64,000 nt of DNA from Candidatus Omnitrophota bacterium (lineage in GTDB: Bacteria > Omnitrophota > Gorgyraeia > Gygaellales > Profunditerraquicolaceae), in NCBI GenBank assembly GCA_025453445.1, contig JALOQJ010000005.1:136-64135 (forward strand). Reading direction: 5' to 3'. Positions 7,449-49,414 of the stretch are shown here, piece after piece (the stretch's first letter is position 1; every line of letters starts with the position of its first letter). Made by a program: the position numbers and the translations under genes. A model generated the notes under the pieces. It made no database searches. It was not told the DNA's origin and saw nothing but the letters and a program-made list of their open reading frames with translations.

Positions 7449-8684
7449 ATGAGCCAGGAATTAATCGCAATTTTAGAACAGTTAGAAAGAGAAAAAGGAA
7501 TTAAGAAAGAAGTTTTAATTGAAGCAGTAGAAACCGCTTTATTAACTGCCGCGCGCAAAGCAGTGGATATCAAGCCGGAAGAAGAGTTGGAAGTAAAGAT
7601 CGATCCGACTGACGGTAAAATCCGGGCCTTTAGGAATAAGCAAGAAATTACTAATATTGATTTTGGCAGGATTGCCGCATCTACTGCGCGCCAGGTGATT
7701 GTGCAGAAAATCCGCGAGGCAGAAAAAGAGATCATTTTTACAGATTTTCAGAGTAAGGTTGGCGAGATTGTCTCTGGCACGGTTTACCGCTTTGAAAAAG
7801 GAAATATTATTGTTGATCTTCTCGGTAAGGCTGAAGGGATCCTTTTAAAGCGCGAGCAGTCGCCTAAGGAAGAATTTAAACAGGGCCAGCGTATCCGCGC
7901 TTTTATCGTGGAAGTTAAAAAGGAAGCCAAAGGCCCGCAGATAATTTTATCGCGTGCCCATCCTAATTTCGTAAAAAAACTATTTGAGCTGGAAGTGCCG
8001 GAAATTTATGAAGGTATCGTAGAAGTAAAATCAGTGGCGCGCCAGCCAGGAGAGCGGACTAAAATTTCCGTTTGCTCTAAGAATGAAAAAGTTGATTCTG
8101 TGGGTGCTTGTGTAGGCATGCGGGGAAACCGTGTGCGCAATATTGTCAATGAATTGCAGGGGGAAAAAATCGATATTGTCCGTTTTAGCGATGATATTAA
8201 GGAATATATAAAAGCTGCTCTTTCTCCTGCTGAAATAGCCCAGATTAATTTGAATAAAGAACACGTTAAGGCTGAGGTAATTGTGGAAAATGATCAGTTG
8301 TCGTTGTCAATCGGCAAGCACGGCCAGAATGTCCGCCTGGCTTCCCGTTTGATTGGTTGGGAATTGGATATCCGCACCAAAGAAGCTTTAGCTGCGGAAA
8401 AATTAGGCCCAGCTGCTCCGAAGGAAGCTGTTGTTGAAGAAGTAGAGGCAAAAGAGGAAGCGCCGAAAGAAGAGAAAAAAGAAAAGAAAGAGAAAAAGGC
8501 TGCTTCTTTGGAAGACTTGTCAGGGGTAGGCGAAAAAACTTTAACTATTCTAAAGGATGCAGGGTTTAAAAATGCCGAAGATATCGCGAAGGCAAAATTA
8601 GAGGATCTAGTAAATTTAAAAGGTATCGGCGAGAAGAAGGCGGAGAAATTAATTGCCGAAGCCAAAAAACTGATTAAAAAATAG
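7449..8684 (+). CDS. nusA: Transcription termination/antitermination factor NusA
   Basis: S1 domain, two KH domains, and a Lys/Glu-rich C-terminal tail with an HhH motif. Context is nusA-infB. Confidence 0.95.
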   Translation: MSQELIAILEQLEREKGIKKEVLIEAVETALLTAARKAVDIKPEEELEVKIDPTDGKIRAFRNKQEITNIDFGRIAASTARQVIVQKIREAEKEIIFTDFQSKVGEIVSGTVYRFEKGNIIVDLLGKAEGILLKREQSPKEEFKQGQRIRAFIVEVKKEAKGPQIILSRAHPNFVKKLFELEVPEIYEGIVEVKSVARQPGERTKISVCSKNEKVDSVGACVGMRGNRVRNIVNELQGEKIDIVRFSDDIKEYIKAALSPAEIAQINLNKEHVKAEVIVENDQLSLSIGKHGQNVRLASRLIGWELDIRTKEALAAEKLGPAAPKEAVVEEVEAKEEAPKEEKKEKKEKKAASLEDLSGVGEKTLTILKDAGFKNAEDIAKAKLEDLVNLKGIGEKKAEKLIAEAKKLIKK

Positions 8685-8693
8685 AGGAGAATC

Positions 8694-10886
8694 ATGGTAA
8701 CAAAGCCTAAAAAAATAAAACCTAAAGTTAAAAAAATTTCAGCGGTAAAGCACAAGCCGGAAGCAAAAAAAGCTGTTCCTAGGGCCAGCCGGCCCAAGCC
8801 AACAGCTAAGCCCCAGGTTAAGCCTAAGCTGGAAAAAATAATAAAGTCAACGAAGCCAAAAGTTATGCCTGTTGTTAAGCCGCAGGTTAAACCGGAAATT
8901 AAAGTTGCAGTGAAGCCTGAAGTGAAGGTTGCATTAAAACAGGAAGTGAAGCATGTAGTAAGGCCGGAAGTTAAACCTGAACTGAAGCCGGTAGTTAAAC
9001 CGGTAATAAAACCAGAAGTAAAGCCGGAAATAAAATCAGAGCATAAACCGGAAATAAAGCCTGTAATTAAGCCGGAAATTAAACCGGAGATCAAGCAGGA
9101 ATTTAAGCAGCAGGTTAAAGAGACGGCACATTTAAAAGAATTGGTATTAAAATTTCCGGTTATTGTAAAAGACCTTGCCATAAAGCTTCAGGAGAAACCA
9201 TCGATATTAATCAAAATGCTCATGGATATGCGCATTATGGCAGGGATTAATCAGGCATTAGATGAGGAAGCAGCAGCAAAGATCTGTGAAAAATTCGGTT
9301 TTAAAATCATACCAGCGCCCGGTGAAGAAGAATTGGCATTACGTGTGCATCAGGAAGCGGATAAGCCGCAGTCTCTAAAAGCGCGGCCGCCGATAGTTAC
9401 TTTTATGGGCCACGTTGATCATGGAAAGACTTCGCTTCTGGATGCGGTAAGAAAAACCAAAGTTGCTGAGTCAGAACACGGCGGGATTACTCAGCATATC
9501 GGCGCCTACCGCGTGCATCTTCCCCACGGGGATATTACATTTTTAGATACGCCGGGGCATGAGGCGTTTACTGCTATGCGTGCGAGAGGAGCGAAGATTA
9601 CCGATATCGTAGTTTTGGTTGTTGCCGCGGACGATGGGATCATGCCTCAGACTAAAGAAGCAATTGATCATGCGCGCGCCGCCGGTGTTTCTATTATTGT
9701 TGCTGTAAACAAAATCGATAAGCCGCAGGCAGATCTTGACCGGGTAAAAAAACAACTTTCAGAAATGGATCTTTTAGCTGAAGATTGGGGTGGTAAAACC
9801 ATTACTGTCCCGGTTTCTGCTAAGACCGGTGCGGGTATAGATAATTTGCTGGAAATGATTATTCTGGAATCTCAGATGCTGGAATTAAAAGCCAATCCGG
9901 ATCGTGCAGCCAGGGGTGTTGTGGTAGAAGCAAAGATGTCTAAGGGGAAGGGGCCGGTGGCTACTCTATTAGTGCAGAATGGCACATTGCATTTAAATGA
10001 GTTTATTATCGTAGGCAATTTCCTTGGCAGGGTGCGCGCGATGTTTAATCATCTTGGCCAGGCTGTAGCTGAAGCAGGCCCGGCTTATCCGGTGGAGGCA
10101 TTGGGTTTGTCGGGAGTTCCTGATGCAGGCGAGCAATTTTTTGTGATTAGCGATGAGAAACAGGCAAAGGAAATAATTGCTTTGCGCCAAGAGCAGGAAA
10201 AACAGGCTCAGGTCAAGCAGGTTAAGCGTATCAATCTTGAAGAATTACATGCGCAGATTAAAGAAGGGAAAATCAAGGATCTGAAGCTGATTATTAAGGC
10301 AGATGTGCAGGGTTCTTTGGCGGCAATCAAAGATACGCTCGACAAAACCAATACTTCGGAAATTAAGTTAGATATTATCCATGAAGGCGTGGGTAATATT
10401 AATTCGTCGGATGTAATCCTGGCAGTTGCCTCTAACGCCCTGATTTTAGGTTTTAATGTAGTACAGGATGATTTAGCTAAAGTAATATCGGCAAAAGAAG
10501 GCGTGGATGTGCGCGTCTACAATATTATTTATGAATTAGCTAATGATATTAAAGCGGCAATTGAAGGCATGCTTGAGCCAAAAATTAAGAAAGTATTCCT
10601 GGGGAGAGTAGATATAAGGCAGGTTTTTAAGCTTTCTCGTTCAGGCATGGTAGCCGGCTGCTTTGTGAGTAAAGGTAAGATTACCCGGCAGGCGGTAATT
10701 AACCTGGTGCGTAACGGCGAGCTGATTTTTGAAGGTAAAATCAGTAACCTGAAACGTTTTAAAGATGATGTAAAAGAAGTGGCTGAGGGTTTTGAATGCG
10801 GGATTACTCTTAGCGGTTTTGACAGTATGCAGGCAGGCGATGTTATTGAGGCATATGATATAGAGAAAGTGGCGCGTAAGCTATGA
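8694..10886 (+). CDS. infB: Translation initiation factor IF-2 with a repetitive KP-rich N-terminal region
   Basis: G-domain motifs [20 protein letters not shown] and NKIDK. The N-terminus carries tandem [10 protein letters not shown]-type repeats. Confidence 0.95.
8874..9114 (+). repeat. In-frame tandem repeats inside infB, encoding (V/I)KPE(V/I)KP units
   Basis: The motif gttaaaccggaa / gtgaagcctgaa recurs with a 15-18-nt period. This is low-complexity coding sequence in the IF2 N-domain. Confidence 0.7.
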
Positions 10887-12645: not shown

Positions 12646-13678
12646 TACAGATCCGCTTAAAACCGCAAGCCCGGGGCAGGAGACTGAAGAGGATGTAGTA
12701 TTGAATATTTCTCTACGGCCGCAGAAGTTCACTGAATTTACCGGCCAAAAAGAAATTATTGATAACCTCAAAATCTGCCTTGCCGCAGCAAAAGAAAGAA
12801 AAGAGCCTTTAGAGCATATATTGCTTTCCGGGCCTCCGGGTTTGGGCAAGACTTCTTTATCACATATTATCGCCCATGAAATGGGCACAAAAATTACCGC
12901 TACCTCTGGCCCTGCGATTGAACGCGCCGGAGATTTAATCGGGATTCTTACTAATTTAGAAAAAGGCGATATCCTCTTTATTGATGAAATCCACCGGCTT
13001 TCCAAAGTGGTGGAAGAATTTTTGTACCCGGCAATGGAAGGTTTTCAGATTGATTTTGTCATTGATAAAGGCCAGTTTGCCCGGACAATTAAGTTCAACC
13101 TTAAGCCTTTTACTTTAATTGGTGCTACTACCCGCACCGGCCTCTTAGCTGCGCCGTTAAGGGCGAGGTTTGGTATTTTCCACCATCTGGATTTTTATAA
13201 AATAGAAGACCTGGCTGTAATTATTAAGCATTCCGCGAAAATTTTAGGTGTCGAGATAGATAACGAAGCTGCAGATGAAGTGGCCCGGCGTAGCCGCGGC
13301 ACGCCCCGCATTGCCAATCGGCTTTTACGCAGGATCCGGGATTATGCGCAGGTAAAGAAAATCGGCAAAATCAATCTAACAGTTGCTTCAGAAACGCTGG
13401 ATGAATTAGGTATTGATAAAGCAGGCCTCGATGATATAGACCGGCGGGTATTAAAAACAATTTTGCAAAATTACAGCGGCGGGCCGGTAGGCGTGGAGTC
13501 TCTGGCTGCTACTTTAAACGAAGAAACTGATACTATCGTGGATACAGTTGAGCCTTTTTTATTAAAAGCAGGCTATATTAAGCGCACTTCCCGCGGCAGG
13601 CTGGCTACCAAATTATCCTTCGAGCATTTCGGGTTAAAATACAATAAAGAGAAGCAGGAAGAGTTGTTTGAGAAGTAG
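12599..13678 (+). CDS. ruvB: Holliday junction ATP-dependent DNA helicase RuvB
   Basis: LRP...F..F.GQ N-terminal motif, Walker A GPPGLGKTSL, sensor and arginine-finger regions. No ruvA is adjacent, and the true start may lie downstream of the long overlap with scpA. Confidence 0.9.
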   Translation: MTNEGRLKLLKGRSNNTDPLKTASPGQETEEDVVLNISLRPQKFTEFTGQKEIIDNLKICLAAAKERKEPLEHILLSGPPGLGKTSLSHIIAHEMGTKITATSGPAIERAGDLIGILTNLEKGDILFIDEIHRLSKVVEEFLYPAMEGFQIDFVIDKGQFARTIKFNLKPFTLIGATTRTGLLAAPLRARFGIFHHLDFYKIEDLAVIIKHSAKILGVEIDNEAADEVARRSRGTPRIANRLLRRIRDYAQVKKIGKINLTVASETLDELGIDKAGLDDIDRRVLKTILQNYSGGPVGVESLAATLNEETDTIVDTVEPFLLKAGYIKRTSRGRLATKLSFEHFGLKYNKEKQEELFEK

Positions 13679-13699
13679 TTTCGCGTCTGCCTTGTCCAG

Positions 13700-13800
13700 T
13701 TTCTCGCTCATTGATATTGAGCGGGTCCTGTCTGCCGATCCACCTCGCCGTCCTCGCTATTCGCTGCGGGCGGCAAGGTCTTCGTCTCGGCAGTCACCCG
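13700..13800 (+). repeat. Diverged, truncated family-2-like GC-rich element
   Basis: It shares gagcgggtcctgtc, cctcgccgtcctcgct and cagtcacccgcaag with the 270-nt family-2 repeats at 21484 and 22851, in the same orientation. Confidence 0.4.
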
Positions 13801-13805
13801 CAAGC

Positions 13806-13837
13806 AATGAATTCGCTCGAAATCCGTCATATTCATT
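13806..13837. repeat. Mini-hairpin whose arms reproduce the family-1 terminal inverted repeats (aatgaattcg...catattcatt)
   Basis: AATGAAT and ATTCATT arms flank a 12-nt spacer and are near-identical to the AATGAATCTG / CAGATTCATT ends of the 237-nt element. Confidence 0.5.
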
Positions 13838-13879
13838 TAAAGCTTATATTAGCGGTTGGCTTGGCTGGGATTTCGAGTA

Positions 13880-13919
13880 CCACAGAGTAGCTGACGTTTA
13901 AACGTCAGCTACTCTGTGG
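13880..13919. repeat. 40-bp perfect palindrome (ccacagagtagctgacgttt|aaacgtcagctactctgtgg)
   Basis: Read directly from the sequence. The two 20-nt arms are perfect reverse complements with no loop. Confidence 0.95.
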
Positions 13920-13937
13920 ATAACTTTCAAGATTCCG

Positions 13938-13961
13938 CAAAAACACAGTCAAGACCCACGC
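13938..13961 (+). repeat. 21-nt motif copy (caaaaacacagtcaagacccacgc)
   Basis: It matches AAAACACAGACAAGACACACG with 2 mismatches, and the same motif recurs at 14228, 21500(rc), 22866(rc) and 23945. Confidence 0.8.
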
Positions 13962-13976
13962 TATGATAGGTTTTTA

Positions 13977-14213
13977 AATGAATCTGGCGCGTTTTCGAGC
14001 GAATGTTGATTTTAGGCAAAGCATGCTCGAGTATTTTTGGGAATTCCGATGCCCCGCGAATGCGGGGCAATATCGGAACGGCGATGCTGTTTGAGGACAT
14101 TTTGCGTATAGCGCAAAATGGCCGAGTTCAGCAGCCGCCAAAAATACGAGAGACCTTTGCCGGCCCCGAAGGGGCAAAATCGACTTTGAGCGAGAAAATG
14201 CGGCAGATTCATT
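13977..14213 (+). repeat. Family-1 GC-rich structured element, copy 1 (candidate ncRNA or MITE-like element)
   Basis: It is bounded by a 10-bp inverted repeat, AATGAATCTG...CAGATTCATT, that extends to a roughly 19-bp closing helix. Internal hairpins are ccccgc-gaat-gcgggg, cattttgcg-tata-cgcaaaatg and gccccgaaggggc. It is GC-rich against an AT-rich background. The second copy is at 23709. Confidence 0.8.
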
Positions 14214-14227
14214 AAGAGATACTTTAG

Positions 14228-14251
14228 AAAACACAGACAAGACACACGCGG
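14228..14251 (+). repeat. 21-nt motif copy (aaaacacagacaagacacacgcgg)
   Basis: Consensus copy, located 14 nt after the family-1 element and 15 nt before the queH start. Confidence 0.8.
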
Positions 14252-14265
14252 GACTATATAAACCT

Positions 14266-20663: not shown

Positions 20664-21483
20664 ACCGCTTGCGGAAAAAATTAAAGAAGAGATAAAAGCA
20701 CAAATTCAGGCATTGGGGATTAAGCCTGTTTTGGCTAGTGTTTTAGTAGGCGAGAATGCCGGTGCTGAAGCCTATGTCAAATCACAAAGCAAAGCCGCAG
20801 AAAATTTAGGGATTGTTTATCAATTTCATAAGCTTGATGCAGCTACAACGGAAGTTGCCTTAATTGAATTTATCAAGAAACTAAATAGCGATAAAAATGT
20901 TAACGGCATTATTATTCAGATGCCGCTTCCAGCGCAAATAGATTATAAAAAAATCTCTCAATTTATTTCTGCGGAAAAAGATGTTGAAGGCATGCATCCG
21001 GCAAATATAGGTAAAATAGTATTCGGTAAGGCGAAGATTCTACCCTGTACGCCGGCGGCAGTAATGGAGCTTTTAAATAGCACGGGCGTTGATTTATACG
21101 GTAAAGAGGTAGTGATTGTCGGCCATAGCGAAATTGTAGGCAAGCCTTTAGCGCTTTTGTTGCTTGAAAAATTTGCTACTGTTACAGTAGCTCATATCGG
21201 TACCAGCAAAGCTGGCAAATTAGAAGAGCATATTAAGAAAGCTGAAGTATTAATTGTGGCAGTGGGTAAGGCGGGGTTAATCAAAGGTGATTTAGTTAAA
21301 GAAGGCGCAATTGTCATTGATGTTGGGATCAATAGGGTGGATGGTAAGATTGTCGGCGATGTGGAGTTTGAAGCGGCAGAGAAGAAAGCAAGCTACATTA
21401 CACCTGTTCCCGGCGGTGTCGGTCCACTGACTGTAACTATGTTAATGCGTAATTTAGTCGAAGCTGCGAAATTACAAAAATAA
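20641..21483 (+). CDS. folD: Bifunctional methylene-THF dehydrogenase / methenyl-THF cyclohydrolase
   Basis: Length is 280 aa. The FolD motifs VGxxxxSxxYxxxK, PGGVGP and TVTxxH-like are present. Confidence 0.95.
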   Translation: MAKLLEGKPLAEKIKEEIKAQIQALGIKPVLASVLVGENAGAEAYVKSQSKAAENLGIVYQFHKLDAATTEVALIEFIKKLNSDKNVNGIIIQMPLPAQIDYKKISQFISAEKDVEGMHPANIGKIVFGKAKILPCTPAAVMELLNSTGVDLYGKEVVIVGHSEIVGKPLALLLLEKFATVTVAHIGTSKAGKLEEHIKKAEVLIVAVGKAGLIKGDLVKEGAIVIDVGINRVDGKIVGDVEFEAAEKKASYITPVPGGVGPLTVTMLMRNLVEAAKLQK

Positions 21484-21753
21484 GTTCTTTGGATTTTTTC
21501 CGTGTGTCTTGTCTGTGTTTTTTCGGGTAGTTTACGAGGGGGCGGGTCCTGTCGAGGCATATTTCTTGCAGGAACGCACGATTTTCCCCGGCGTGGAAAA
21601 TCGCGCTCGGCTCCTCGGCCTCGCTCGTCCCAGACAAGATTAGTGCGGGGGACACCGTGCCCGCTCGGCCTGCGGACGTCCTGCTCGAATCGCGCCTCGT
21701 CAATCCGCTTCGACAGGATAGAAGTCGCGCTCAAAACCGGCCAAGTCACCCGC
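21484..21753 (+). repeat. Family-2 GC-rich structured element, copy A
   Basis: Roughly 95% identical to 22851..23120. It starts immediately after the folD stop codon. Its left end carries the reverse complement of the 21-nt motif at 21500-21521. It contains the hairpin cgattttcc-acgccgg-ggaaaatcg. Confidence 0.85.
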
Positions 21754-21769
21754 TAAGACTGGTTTAAAT

Positions 21770-22345
21770 ATGAAAAATAAAAATGTCTATATAATCGCAG
21801 GGCCGAATGGATCGGGTAAGACAACCTTTGCAAGGATGTTTTTGCCTGATTATGTAAGTTGCCCAAATTTTGTAAATGCCGATCTTATTGCTCAAGGGCT
21901 GGCTCCTTTTGAGCCGCGCAGCGCGGCGATTAAAGCGGGTAAACTTGTTTTGCAGCAAATTCATGAATTTGCCGGGCGTAATGTTGATTTTTCTTTTGAA
22001 ACAACTCTATCCGGTAAATCTTACGCGAATTTACTAAGTGAATTAAAACTAAAAGGCTATGCAGTATATCTTTTTTTTCTTTGGATTCCCAATACGGAGT
22101 TAGCAATAGCCCGAATTAAAGACAGAGTTAAGGAAGGCGGACATAATGTACCGGCTGAAGATGTTAGGCGGCGTTTCCGTCGTGGTCTCAATAATTTTTT
22201 CAAATTATATGAGCCGTTGCTTGATTCGTGGATGCTGTTTGATAATTCTCAGGCTAAGCCGGTCTTGATAGCAAAAAGGCGTAATGGCCACATGGAAATA
22301 ATAAATGAAAAATTATTTGAAGCAATTCAGGAATCTTTGAGGTGA
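21770..22345 (+). CDS. Zeta-toxin/AAA_33-like P-loop kinase (COG4185-like), candidate toxin
   Basis: MKNKNVYIIAGPNGSGKTTFARMF Walker A near the N-terminus and a roughly 190-aa zeta-like fold. Confidence 0.7.
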   Translation: MKNKNVYIIAGPNGSGKTTFARMFLPDYVSCPNFVNADLIAQGLAPFEPRSAAIKAGKLVLQQIHEFAGRNVDFSFETTLSGKSYANLLSELKLKGYAVYLFFLWIPNTELAIARIKDRVKEGGHNVPAEDVRRRFRRGLNNFFKLYEPLLDSWMLFDNSQAKPVLIAKRRNGHMEIINEKLFEAIQESLR

Positions 22346-22348
22346 TGT

Positions 22349-22501
22349 ATGAAAAAAAGAATGTCCGTAGAAGATAAGGCTGAAGCAGCGCTGAAGGCAG
22401 CGGTAAGAAAAGTTGTAGAAGAGCATAAGAAGACCGGCCGGCCTTTAGCAATATGGGAGAATGGTAGGGTTATGCAAATTTCTCCGTATAAGATAAAGTA
22501 G
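22349..22501 (+). CDS. Small basic 50-aa protein (MKKRMSVEDKAEAALKAAVRKVVEEHKKTGRPLAIWENGRVMQISPYKIK), candidate partner or antitoxin
   Basis: Not in the ORF table because it is under 60 aa. A GAGGTGA RBS lies 5 nt upstream, and the ATG is 4 nt after the kinase stop. Confidence 0.45.
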   Translation: MKKRMSVEDKAEAALKAAVRKVVEEHKKTGRPLAIWENGRVMQISPYKIK

Positions 22502-22519
22502 GTGTTAAGTTATAGATAG

Positions 22520-22849
22520 ATGAAAACAATTGTTCTTTTGACTATATCAAATGTGTTTATGACTTTTGCCTGGTATGGGCATCTGAAGTTTAAAAATTCG
22601 CCGCTCTGGATTGTAGTTTTAATCAGCTGGGGCATTGCTTTTGCCGAGTATTGTTTTCAGGTGCCGGCAAACCGTATCGGCTCTTATAAATTTAGCGCGG
22701 CACAGTTAAAGACAATTCAGGAAATAATTACTCTTGTAGTATTTGCAGTATTTTCTGTGCTCTATCTTAAAGAAGAATTCAAATGGAATTATGCTGTAGG
22801 TTTCTTGTGTATCTTACTAGCGGTGTTTTTTATATTTAAGAAGTGGTAG
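22520..22849 (+). CDS. DUF486/DMT-superfamily small membrane protein
   Basis: 109 aa with four predicted TM helices and a pattern resembling DUF486. Confidence 0.6.
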   Translation: MKTIVLLTISNVFMTFAWYGHLKFKNSPLWIVVLISWGIAFAEYCFQVPANRIGSYKFSAAQLKTIQEIITLVVFAVFSVLYLKEEFKWNYAVGFLCILLAVFFIFKKW

Positions 22850-22850
22850 A

Positions 22851-23120
22851 GTTCTTTGGATTTTTTCCGTGTGTCTTGTCTGTGTTTTTGCGGGTAGTTT
22901 ACGAATGGGCGGGTCCTGTCGAGGCATATTTCTCGCAGGAACGCACGATTTTCCCCGGCGTGGAAAATCGCGCTCGGCTCCTCGGCCTCGCTCGTCCTCT
23001 AAAGTTTATTTAGGGAGGACACCGTGCCCGCTCGGCCTGCGGACGTCCTGCTCGAATCGCGCCTCGTCAACCCGCTTCGACAGGATAGAAGCCGCGCTCA
23101 AAACCGGCCAAGCCACCCGC
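22851..23120 (+). repeat. Family-2 GC-rich structured element, copy B
   Basis: Near-identical to copy A except for an 18-nt equal-length substitution block (cagacaagattagtgcgg versus tctaaagtttatttaggg). It starts 1 nt after the stop of the upstream gene and carries the motif reverse complement at 22866-22887. Confidence 0.85.
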
Positions 23121-23184
23121 GAGAAATGAACTATTTTAGATAAGTACTCAACCAAAATAGCAAATTTGATCAAAGAGGGATAAA

Positions 23185-23688
23185 ATGGAAATCGAAGTTA
23201 TTAAGATAATCGTTTATCCGGTATTAGTTACTTTTCTTACGATAACGATAGCTAAATTTCATTTTGAAAAAGATAGAAAAGTAGAATATCTTAGGGCTAA
23301 AGATAAAGTAGCGATAGATTTAATAAGGTGTCTTTGTAATATGCTTACTCACATGTGGGAAATGGTGAATATCGATCGCTGGGTGGCTAATGGTAATTCT
23401 AATCCAGATCTTCCTCAGAAACGACTACAAGCTAGAAATAATTTTTACCAATCTAGGAATGATACTACTATCTTATTAGGACTTATGGGGTTGTATTACG
23501 GTACTAAAATAGTGGATAGGATATCCCAGCTTATATCTGATTTAAACGATATGGTGAATAGTAATAATTTTTCCGCTTTTGATAAGTGGGATAATTTTAG
23601 AAGAAAAAAGTTGTTACCCATTCTAAATAAAGTTCATAAGGAATTAAAGTATACCGTATTTGATAGACCGTTTTGGGATTTAGGTTAG
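23185..23688 (+). CDS. Hypothetical membrane-anchored protein, very AT-rich gene
   Basis: N-terminal TM helix (IIVYPVLVTFLTITIA). Codon usage is far more AT-rich than in neighbouring genes. Confidence 0.5.
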   Translation: MEIEVIKIIVYPVLVTFLTITIAKFHFEKDRKVEYLRAKDKVAIDLIRCLCNMLTHMWEMVNIDRWVANGNSNPDLPQKRLQARNNFYQSRNDTTILLGLMGLYYGTKIVDRISQLISDLNDMVNSNNFSAFDKWDNFRRKKLLPILNKVHKELKYTVFDRPFWDLG

Positions 23689-23708
23689 AGTAGTTTTGGT
23701 GTTTGATA

Positions 23709-23937
23709 AATGAATCTGGAGCGTTTTCGAGCGAATGTCGATTTTAGGCAAAGCATGCTCGAGTATTTTTGGAAATTCCGATGCCCCGCGAATGCGGGGC
23801 AATATCGGAACGGCGATGCTGTTCGAGGAGCATTTGCTAGAGCAAATGCGACGAGTTCAGCAGCCGCCAAAAATACGAGAGACCTTTGCCGGCCCGCCGA
23901 AGGCGAGGCAAAATCGACTCTGAGCGAGAAAACCGAC
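23709..23937 (+). repeat. Family-1 GC-rich structured element, copy 2
   Basis: It has the same AATGAATCTG...CAGATTCATT ends and the same hairpins as copy 1, with compensatory changes: gcatttgc-taga-gcaaatgc, and cgcc-gaa-ggcg. Confidence 0.8.
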
Positions 23938-23944
23938 AGATTCA

Positions 23945-23968
23945 TTAAAGCGTAAATACACAGACAAG
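23945..23968 (+). repeat. 21-nt motif copy (aaatacacagacaagacaaacgcg)
   Basis: Located 7 nt after family-1 copy 2 and 29 nt before the metF TTG start. Confidence 0.75.
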
Positions 23969-23996
23969 ACAAACGCGAAACAGTAAGGAGTGAAAA

Positions 23997-47131: not shown

Positions 47132-47289
47132 GTGCACAATTTACGGAACGAAGTGAACGTAAATTGTATGCACGAACTTACCCCACACCCAGGCAGCAGA
47201 ATAAAAAGCTAATGTTTTCTGGGTGTGGGGTTAATTCGCACAGCGACTTATGTTCATCCGCTTTTAGCGGATTCCATAAGTCGCGTGCT
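47132..47289 (+). repeat. Three-hairpin intergenic element, copy 1 (argS-recJ spacer)
   Basis: Hairpin 1 is gtgcacaatttacg...cgtaaattgtatgcac. Hairpin 2 is ccccacacccag-N26-ctgggtgtgggg. Hairpin 3 is gcacagcgacttatg-(atccgct-ttt-agcggat)-cataagtcgcgtgc. Confidence 0.75.
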
Positions 47290-49239: not shown

Positions 49240-49414
49240 ATAATTTACGGAGCGAAAGCGACGTAAATTATAGCTACTGTTAATTAAATGATTATCAGCG
49301 TCTGCGAATTAAACCCCACACCCAGCTACATTGAAATCTTTTATTTAGTATCTGGGTGTGTGGGTCAAATTCAGGCATACAACTTCCGTTCGCTTGCGCT
49401 CCGTAAGTTGTGCC
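49240..49414 (+). repeat. Three-hairpin intergenic element, copy 2 (rpmB divergent spacer)
   Basis: Same three-hairpin architecture as 47132, with compensatory changes in the hairpin 1 arms (cacaatttacg becomes ataatttacg). Hairpin 2 again has the ccccacacccag/ctgggtgtgtggg stem. Confidence 0.75.

Follow-up and report, generated by a model that had tools for sequence, protein, structure and literature searches.

Two near-identical repeats of about 270 nucleotides (nt) lie between folD and metF in a genome of Candidatus Omnitrophota, and the locus raises the question of what such repeats are and how they came to stand beside the genes around them. We analysed them within a 64,000-nt stretch of this genome (the window, along which positions are counted); the closest FolD relative is 85% identical. 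The order of features is folD, repeat copy a on the minus strand, a gene for a zeta-toxin-like kinase, a 50-aa open reading frame (ORF; orf50), a DUF486 gene, repeat copy b on the minus strand, orf167, a copy of a second repeat family on the plus strand (family-1 copy b) and metF. The repeats represented by copies a and b are referred to here as family 2. They have a strand-specific pseudoknotted fold, and their copies are dispersed, ORF-less, nested and patchily distributed, with no adjacent partner gene and with cargo genes adjoining some of them. We lean, with slightly better than even confidence, towards the interpretation that these dispersed, ORF-less copies are non-autonomous mobile structured elements.

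The first-pass annotation, which had only the letters to work from, described two near-identical copies of about 270 nt distinguished by an equal-length 18-nt replacement, and a repeat finder, an ungapped comparison and an independent contig (L203) all bore this out. By the repeat finder and the ungapped comparison, the left parts (21483-21630 and 22850-22997, respectively) are 97% identical and the right parts (21647-21753 and 23014-23120) 96% identical. Between them the ungapped comparison placed CAGACAAGATTAGTGCGG at 21631-21648 in copy a against TCTAAAGTTTATTTAGGG at 22998-23015 in copy b, with one further G/A difference beside this block. The description of the boundaries also held: copy a starts at the last A of the folD TAA (21483) and copy b at the first base past the DUF486 TAG (22850), the next ATG (21770 and 23185) follows them after 16 nt and 64 nt, respectively, and copies abut stop codons in relatives as they do in the window. 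L203 (JGI contig Ga0392394_0001771) matches the window collinearly for 8.1 kb (99.84% identity), with the respective 18-nt block in each of its two copies. The two-copy arrangement is therefore not an assembly artefact, being reproduced by independent assemblies. Three short contigs begin or stop within these repeats, as multi-copy sequence tends to cause.

Each copy ends in a tail that contains the 18-nt motif ACACAGACAAGACACACG, which corresponds to the 21-nt motif of the first-pass annotation and occurs five times in the window against none expected: exactly in copies a and b and in family-1 copy a, with one mismatch in family-1 copy b and with two in a neighbouring degenerate element (Table 1). 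A second profile match in the 5' segment of each copy indicated a core nested in an older shell, so the family-2 units of the window are composite: an older copy's shell encloses a full core, with a tail of 18-21 nt behind. A pairing of the extra 5' segment with the tail motif was considered and rejected. Forcing it costs about 5.5 kcal/mol relative to the minimum free energy (MFE), and the tail is thus better seen as a separate 3' module behind the outer stem (GCGGGUG.../...CUACCCGC). Folding of single sequences gave z = -0.5 for the plus and -1.6 for the minus strand of the family-2 window copies, no better than shuffles. This test is uninformative because shuffled GC-rich sequence folds almost as well, and it is overruled by the comparative data.

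Those data came from further copies, which the first-pass annotation had proposed to seek in related genomes and which we found for both families. Searching 1.2 Mb of related genomes with nhmmer-type profiles brought up 16 full-length family-2 relatives, and R1, a covariance model built on the family-2 core, detected 15 full cores in 1.23 Mb of Omnitrophota DNA. Thirteen copies beyond the window were located in 11 of the Omnitrophota species genomes that were sampled around folD. A gapped anchor pattern (GAGCGGSCANGG, GAGCGA, CNCGSNGGG) recovered at least 120 metagenome stretches on contigs spanning 34-68% GC, and it matched no viral contig. The 21-nt tail, scanned across the genome collection, had no match, which argues that it is specific to this lineage.

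The family-2 core is about 130-170 nt long. A long closing stem with tandem G·A pairs leads into a three-way junction, of which one arm carries a near-invariant asymmetric internal loop (GAGCGGGCAYGG / GAGCGA) and a variable hairpin, P5, and the other is a hairpin, P6, whose conserved loop CNCGCYGGG forms a 3-bp pseudoknot with the internal loop. About 27 loop nucleotides of the core are near-invariant, and alignment of the family-2 relatives exposed this conserved skeleton with the variable block at the equivalent place in every species. The hairpin cgattttcc-N7-ggaaaatcg that had been picked out in both copies is present at 21579-21603 and 22946-22970, and it is P6 with its pseudoknot loop. 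Towards the ends of the elements, the termini form an outer stem with a mean longest run of 11.7 bp compared with 8.2 bp in controls (for example UUUUAGCGGGU...ACCCGCUAAAA).

The main covariation test used an anchored gapless alignment (A4) of 122 distinct copies; a MAFFT alignment (A3) misplaces P3. In the anchored alignment 84.0% of cells were paired, compared with 54.9% after shuffling (a level reached by none of 500 shuffles), and sliding the partners lowered pairing to 34-45%. The covariation score was 0.696 against 0.181 in shuffles, and 696 cells had changed on both sides against 216. P6 was 91% paired with compensatory changes at every pair, the stem of P5 covaried and was 90% paired, and the pseudoknot was 95% paired. 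A MAFFT alignment of 32 diverse copies, which includes P2, gave 80.3% against 54.7% paired cells and a covariation score of 0.619 against 0.198, with changes on both sides at all 10 P2 pairs. An alignment-free test that compared contiguous base pairs within and between sequences returned 3.8 versus 1.1 for P3, 6.0 versus 1.4 for P6 and 6.0 versus 3.75 for P5, and more than 60 distinct arm sequences were counted for each of P3 and P6. The tertiary pair between internal-loop position 7 (GAGCGGGCA) and P6-loop position 5 (CNCGCNGGG) was G-C in 109 copies, C-G in 12, C-C in two and G-G in none, and its flanking pairs are an invariant C-G and a G-Y (G·U in 77 copies).

The strand on which selection acts could also be identified. 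Interior wobbles were G·U in 10 cases and A·C in none, and in 116 of 123 copies the sense strand folded more stably, the mean difference being 10.8 kcal/mol. These results show that the selected fold belongs to one strand, which is the minus strand of the window, antisense to folD and DUF486, as the first-pass annotation had read it. The interior is conserved as strongly as that of a riboswitch or ribozyme across very different genomes. At the gathering score, Rfam 15 gave no match at the element in the window or in 20 diverse loci, and at E<=10 there was none in the window region or in 20 short loci, ribozymes, HEARO, group II introns, 6S and RNase P included. Literature searches by taxon, description and sequence string returned nothing relevant. 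The family is absent from Rfam 15 and from the literature searched; small dispersed structured repeats as such are known.

The 18-nt block had been interpreted as a variable loop in an otherwise constrained molecule, and this proved apt, since it forms the apical part of P5, whose stem covaries and whose tip differs in sequence in 119 of 123 distinct copies. The tip is 16-33 nt long with no 3-nt periodicity, and in most metagenome copies the variable block is a plain stem-loop of arbitrary sequence. In one locus (L175, approximately 7540-7990) a complete core is inserted, inverted, in the P5 apical loop of another core, and the outer copy keeps the C/G version of the tertiary pair (AAGCGGCCACGG with CTCGGTGGG). 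The free variation of the tip and this nested copy together indicate that P5 is the permissive site of the fold. The term hypervariable, in the sense of ongoing diversification, found no support, since in three assemblies each locus keeps its own fixed block. The variable segment had no consistent match to flanking DNA in the folded copies or by reading of the sequence. As a separate observation, the P5 loop of copy a (UCUUGUCUG, minus strand) has 9 nt perfectly complementary to the tail motif (CAGACAAGA; chance approximately 4e-4). No such complementarity is present in copy b, no consistent match was seen in relatives, and we have not built upon it.

We considered whether the repeat might instead encode a small protein, given that frame 21502-21756 is open in both copies (84 aa in copy a, 86 aa in copy b) and that the block, with a length divisible by three, could be a variable region of six codons, possibly diversified by a retroelement. 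The Arg/Ser/Pro-rich product is of the kind expected from GC-rich non-coding DNA and has no Pfam match, the corresponding segment varies over 16-33 nt across the family, and the covariation is of the base-pairing type. The differences between blocks involve all base types and are not adenine-specific, the copies are intergenic, no reverse transcriptase (RT) is found nearby (25 of 110 Pfam families of the window genes), and the blocks are fixed across assemblies, all unlike a diversity-generating retroelement. We therefore give this explanation almost no credence, and the protein-coding reading was rejected as effectively refuted by covariation, segment lengths and the lack of a Pfam match. The repeats do give rise to spurious ORFs of 84, 86 and 77 aa in the window.

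Family-2 copies behave as dispersed repeats. They are intergenic in 124 of 137 cases, packed tightly between genes, with the downstream gene co-oriented in 51 cases and opposite in 53, and their neighbours are functionally diverse. Relative to the upstream gene the conserved strand is antisense in 60 cases and sense in 44. Elements that are 92-97% identical sit in contigs with non-homologous flanks, including GC-rich contigs unlike the organism of the window, in whose AT-rich genome the element is GC-rich. Most related species have nothing but 9-46 nt between folD and metF; in other relatives an element of one or the other family stands at this junction, pointing either way and sometimes accompanied by extra genes, and the ruvB-queH junction, the site of family-1 copy a, is likewise empty or filled. 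Fragmentary and mini copies occur beside nested and chimeric ones.

The position of copies after stop codons, where these stable GC-rich structures fill the spacers of an AT-rich genome, would suit cis-acting parts of host mRNAs, namely terminators, insulators or REP-like stabilisers, and a terminator role had been raised in the first-pass annotation. The terminator proposal found no support: two terminator-like sites were counted, compared with 3.0±1.7 in shuffles, neither in a family-2 copy, and promoters and terminators at copies are at shuffle level, without excess. The elements lack the hairpin and U-tract of an intrinsic terminator, and on both strands the outer stem is preceded by U-rich and followed by A-rich sequence. 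The orientation counts given above, the antisense position of the fold relative to folD and DUF486, and the related species that have no element at the same junctions also argue against a role in the host transcript, which we consider very improbable.

The conserved fold itself would suit a different explanation, that each copy of family 2 is a small RNA gene with its own transcription and a regulatory, protein-binding or catalytic function (a self-cleaving ribozyme, for example). The copies would then have arisen by duplication, and their position beside cargo would be incidental. A strand-specific fold of riboswitch or ribozyme grade, with its near-invariant loop nucleotides and covarying pseudoknot, is what such genes should have, and intergenic copies without fixed orientation to their neighbours, none of them on a viral contig, are as expected for stand-alone genes. 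A riboswitch or other 5' leader should have a consistent co-oriented downstream gene, which is not seen. Nesting (in L175, L076 and the window), fragments, chimeras, presence or absence at the same junctions and near-identical copies in unrelated flanks are unlike RNA genes, and many copies lie antisense inside tight co-directional operons without any excess of promoters or terminators. We regard this explanation as unlikely on its own terms; it is partly compatible with the mobile-element interpretation, since a mobile element may also encode a functional RNA.

We then considered the genes that adjoin the copies. In L016 the DUF486 gene immediately follows folD (stop TAG, then ATG), and because it follows folD in several relatives (Table 1) it is probably a resident gene and not cargo. 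The zeta-like gene, orf50 and orf167 had no tblastn match in 80 related loci. With this cargo absent from relatives and DUF486 resident, copy a, the zeta-like gene and orf50 together form an insertion that separates folD from DUF486. An element also follows DUF486 in L016, at the position of copy b. Against defence-system and NCBIfam models the cargo had no more than weak P-loop matches. Reading by eye placed small AT-rich cargo ORFs on the 5' (head) side of the element in about 10 of 11 cases (window 21754-23706, L016, L076, L023, L053, L004, L011, L026), with the 3' tails facing conserved housekeeping genes. In L203, orf167 carries a nonsense change from GGA to TGA (approximately 7700, window approximately 23480), suggesting that the gene is dispensable or decaying.

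One structural variant of the locus was detected. In L002 (NCBI JAOQIB010086553.1), folD is followed by a single chimeric family-2 copy (1977-2254) and then by orf167, and the zeta-like gene, orf50 and DUF486 are missing. The single copy is a-type at all diagnostic sites through the block and b-type rightward, which places the crossover within a 54-nt identical run (21650-21703). The loss includes the probably resident DUF486, which marks L002 as a deletion variant as opposed to an empty ancestral site. Recombination between the homologous direct repeats explains it, with an assembler jump as a possible alternative. Exact-protein look-ups for orf167, QueH and MetF returned no further structural variants.

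The loss in L002 of exactly one repeat and the intervening genes, with a hybrid site left behind, is also what recombination sites of a cassette-capture system would produce, whether like integron attC or like Xer-dependent dif modules. The folded strand would then serve as substrate for a site-specific recombinase whose gene lies elsewhere, with the genes between sites as mobile cassettes. Like attC sites, the elements are imperfect palindromes with a variable centre and a structure selected on one strand, and they bracket small, diverse, AT-rich and lineage-specific genes, promoterless in integrons, that include a toxin-like pair and membrane-like proteins where integrons carry toxin-antitoxin pairs; family-1 copy a is moreover flanked by two copies of the tail motif. 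Unlike attC (approximately 57-141 nt, with RYYYAAC / GTTRRRY cores), the window copies are 270 nt, elements run from 170 to 280 nt, two to four times longer, and their interior has conserved internal loops and a pseudoknot. They start with GTTCTTT, which does not fit GTTRRRY, and have no R''/R' sites. Neither an integrase (25 of 110 window Pfam families) nor an attI site accompanies them, and no integrase is enriched near copies. Copies are scattered over many junctions and not gathered on one platform, most lack adjacent cargo, the L002 crossover falls in the longest identical stretch as in ordinary homologous recombination, and DUF486, gone from L002, is probably resident. Taken together, these points make a cassette system improbable.

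We therefore return to the interpretation that the copies are non-autonomous mobile structured elements. Under this model, machinery encoded elsewhere would move the element by recognising its folded single strand, most likely as RNA, although single-stranded DNA is possible; the pseudoknot and the G·U pairs make RNA the likelier form. The landing sites of the element would be the short spacers where genes end, or hairpin loops that other copies expose. Resident copies would then act as portable homology, and genes between them could be gained or lost by recombination, as in L002. Copy a would have arrived together with the zeta-toxin-like gene pair between folD and the resident DUF486.

Several observations weigh against this model. 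No transposition event was caught between near-identical genomes; the sole population variant is the L002 deletion, which plain homologous recombination or an assembler jump can explain. No autonomous parent element with the same ends was found among the neighbours of copies, and no target-site duplication is evident at family-2 copies. The conserved pseudoknot exceeds what a DNA transposase would need, and mobilisation in trans of a structured RNA without an ORF is not known from any bacterial system. Elements that share a junction at approximately 80% FolD identity (the window and L016, after DUF486) could be old residents and not repeated insertions. About 20 kb was sampled per genome, so that per-genome copy number is an extrapolation.

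A possible but doubtful form of mobility is that the core is a new structured-RNA class which is itself the mobile agent, ORF-less and spreading through an RNA intermediate. Such an RNA might process itself, as a new ribozyme, or be copied and integrated by an RT or recombinase encoded elsewhere, which would make it a bacterial counterpart of short interspersed nuclear elements or retrozymes. Head-to-head pairs of copies would then carry small cargo genes between housekeeping genes.

Searches for a protein partner were negative. Clustering of the neighbours of approximately 135 copies returned housekeeping genes only and no transposase cluster. Among the 25 most recurrent of 203 Pfam families in the 144 nearest ORFs, none occurred more than three times and transposase, RT, integrase and nuclease families were not enriched. 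The window genes are housekeeping genes by Pfam, and the 25 of their 110 Pfam families considered include no integrase and no RT. Genes for IscB, TnpB or IS110 adjoin none of the approximately 135 copies.

Comparison with known systems places family 2 nearest to, and yet apart from, several of them. With miniature inverted-repeat transposable elements (MITEs) and the Correia/NEMIS, ERIC, RUP, BOX and REP-BIME repeats it shares a short (170-280 nt), ORF-less, multi-copy and intergenic form, terminal inverted repeats that pair to close a long stem, occurrence in either orientation, nested and fragmentary copies, presence that varies between genomes, and recombination between copies. Known MITEs are lineage-restricted and constrained mainly at their ends. 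Family 2 differs in its near-invariant loop nucleotides and one-strand covarying pseudoknot, in a core common to contigs of 34-68% GC, and in that neither a parent transposon nor a clear target duplication was found; an autonomous transposase-encoding relative is missing from the surroundings of the approximately 135 copies (25 most recurrent of 203 families). The omega RNAs of HEARO/IscB and of TnpB and the bridge RNA of IS110 are likewise large, conserved, pseudoknotted RNAs linked to mobile DNA and can be multi-copy, and HEARO was first noticed as a repeated structured RNA without an assigned role. Omega and bridge RNAs are encoded beside their effector, whereas family 2 has no such neighbour and no Rfam HEARO match; their variable part is a terminal or internal-loop guide, whereas that of family 2 is a hairpin tip. 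Self-cleaving ribozymes carried in repeats (twister-sister, hairpin and eukaryotic retrozymes) have a junction and an internal loop that docks with a hairpin loop, and by analogy they too may be multi-copy, without an ORF and without fixed relation to genes. Family 2 has no similarity to Rfam ribozymes even at E<=10, and its closing stem of approximately 20-30 bp in folded examples is atypical.

Should the fold prove to be that of a functional RNA, Rfam lacks a pseudoknotted RNA class that is widespread and conserved in sequence. Should family 2 prove mobile, it is an example, rare in bacteria, of an ORF-less repeat under strong structural selection in its interior as well as at its ends, and it points to mobilising machinery yet to be named. 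In either case the repeats break metagenome assemblies, create spurious ORFs, and mark entry sites of toxin-like and unassigned cargo genes into conserved operons such as the folD-metF folate/Wood-Ljungdahl cluster of Omnitrophota.

The second repeat family of the window, family 1, had been described with family 2 as diverged paralogues of conserved architecture. The proposed structural similarity stood in part. The 21-nt tail is significantly similar, with a local score in the window of 42 compared with a null of 18.7±2.6, and it is the only such segment, since with the tail removed the best local alignment of the bodies scores 18 against a null mean of 18.4. The bodies thus align at chance, none of the three invariant family-2 anchors occurs in family 1, and R1 matches neither family-1 copy at E<=0.1, so the paralogue reading is not supported: by core sequence and structure, family 1 is not the same RNA class as family 2. 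The suggested equivalence of their hairpins also falls, as the family-1 hairpin is variable and differs between its own copies, whereas that of family 2 is P6. What the families have in common is the tail, a closing-stem motif (TTYGAGC...GCGAGAA) with tandem G·A, and an ability to combine, seen in L076 (1180-1470), where a family-2 core lies inside a family-1 shell, and in L053 and L040, where a family-1 5' end is joined to a family-2 core.

Family 1 is itself exceptionally stable in structure (MFE -130 kcal/mol, z=-11.0), its two window copies differ by compensatory hairpin changes, and copy a is reproduced at 100% identity in an NCBI assembly. A profile search of 1.2 Mb from related genomes found 13 relatives, and 10 of 13 copies are antisense to the folD strand; at least 11 relatives lie in other Omnitrophota species, and Rfam gave no match. 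Family-1 copy a is bracketed by two copies of the tail motif, one of which belongs to a neighbouring mini element. Head-to-head pairs of family 1 and family 2 without cargo recur in L018, L019, L086 and L087. At the contig end of L203 a hairpin of the family-1a type occupies the family-1b locus, which may reflect gene conversion or a contig-end assembly chimera. The positions of all features in the window are collected in Table 1.

Table 1. Repeat elements, their structural parts and adjoining genes in the 64,000-nt window
Feature	Positions	Strand	Remarks
Family-2 copy a, whole repeat unit (tail motif, outer shell and complete inner core)	21483-21753	-	Direct repeat with copy b; nhmmer family-2 profile E=8.6e-43; identical in L203
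Family-2 copy b, whole repeat unit	22850-23120	-	Direct repeat with copy a; nhmmer family-2 profile; L203
Core of copy a (P2, P3, internal loop, P5, P6)	21557-21690	-	cmsearch with model R1, 107.8 bits, model positions 1-127; in seed alignment
Core of copy b	22924-23057	-	cmsearch with model R1, 110.3 bits; in seed alignment
Anchor 1 of copy a, GAGCGGGCACGG, 5' side of internal loop	21655-21666	-	Invariant in 122 copies; its G-G-C (positions 6-8) enters the pseudoknot
Anchor 2 of copy a, GAGCGA, 3' side of internal loop	21621-21626	-	Invariant
Hairpin P6 of copy a	21579-21603	-	Anchor 3 is its loop, CACGCCGGG (21587-21595), which pairs with anchor 1
Hairpin P6 of copy b	22946-22970	-	Copy-a position plus 1367 nt
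18-nt block of copy a, apical P5 (stem GTCCC/GGGAC)	21631-21648	-	Ungapped comparison; P5 stem covaries
18-nt block of copy b, P5 tip	22998-23015	-	Prolongs the stem (GTCCT..CTAAA / TTTAG..AGGAC)
Tail motif ACACAGACAAGACACACG of copy a	21501-21518	-	Similar to the outer-stem 3' strand of family-2 elements from relatives
Tail motif of copy b	22868-22885	-	Motif search of window
Extra 5' shell segment of copy a	21722-21764	-	Second nhmmer match, family-2 profile positions 12-54; sequence reading
Extra 5' shell segment of copy b	23089-23136	-	nhmmer
Family-1 copy a	13975-14250	+	Includes tail motif 14231-14248; fold z=-11.0
Family-1 copy b	23707-23975	+	Includes tail motif 23958-23975; head-to-head with family-2 copy b
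Degenerate mini family-2 element	13878-13965	+	Its 3' stem strand is the 'solo' motif 13943-13960
Cargo of copy a: zeta-toxin-like P-loop kinase (21770-22345) and 50-aa ORF (22349-22501)	21770-22501	+	Pfam Zeta_toxin 1.7e-10
DUF486/DMT_6 gene between copies a and b	22520-22849	+	Follows folD in L016, L020, L047, L051
orf167, AT-rich cargo ORF, no known family	23185-23688	+	Between the 5' ends of copy b (-) and family-1 copy b (+)

Further repeats were noted in the window and in related species. The ruvB-queH gap (13679-14265) appears to be mostly filled with elements: weak profile matches and reading by eye suggested a degenerate family-2-like shell on the minus strand at approximately 13700-13810 and a mini family-1 shell at approximately 13812-13850, in addition to those in Table 1. 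A 77-aa ORF (13668-13901) that overlaps these elements is probably spurious. A third GC-rich repeat family (TTTTGCTGCGGGTTTG(C/T)TCGCG...GCTGAAAA...) is present at the same gene junctions in related species (L008 approximately 1665-1850, L011 approximately 545-760, L053 approximately 1800-1960), with short forms in L016, L004 and L076. The intergenic regions 47135-47230 and 49250-49400 have a pair of hairpins in common, AATTTACGGA.CGAA..GA.CGTAAATT and CCCCACACCCAG...CTGGGTGTGGGG, the second of which is also found as a variable hairpin within the family-1 copy in L028.

Over the whole window (1-64000) no tRNA or other Rfam family reached the gathering score, and every plausible gene is on the plus strand. 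The ORF at 8694-10886 contains a coding tandem repeat (8875-9119) with a 12-nt period and 15 copies, rich in Lys, Pro and Glu.

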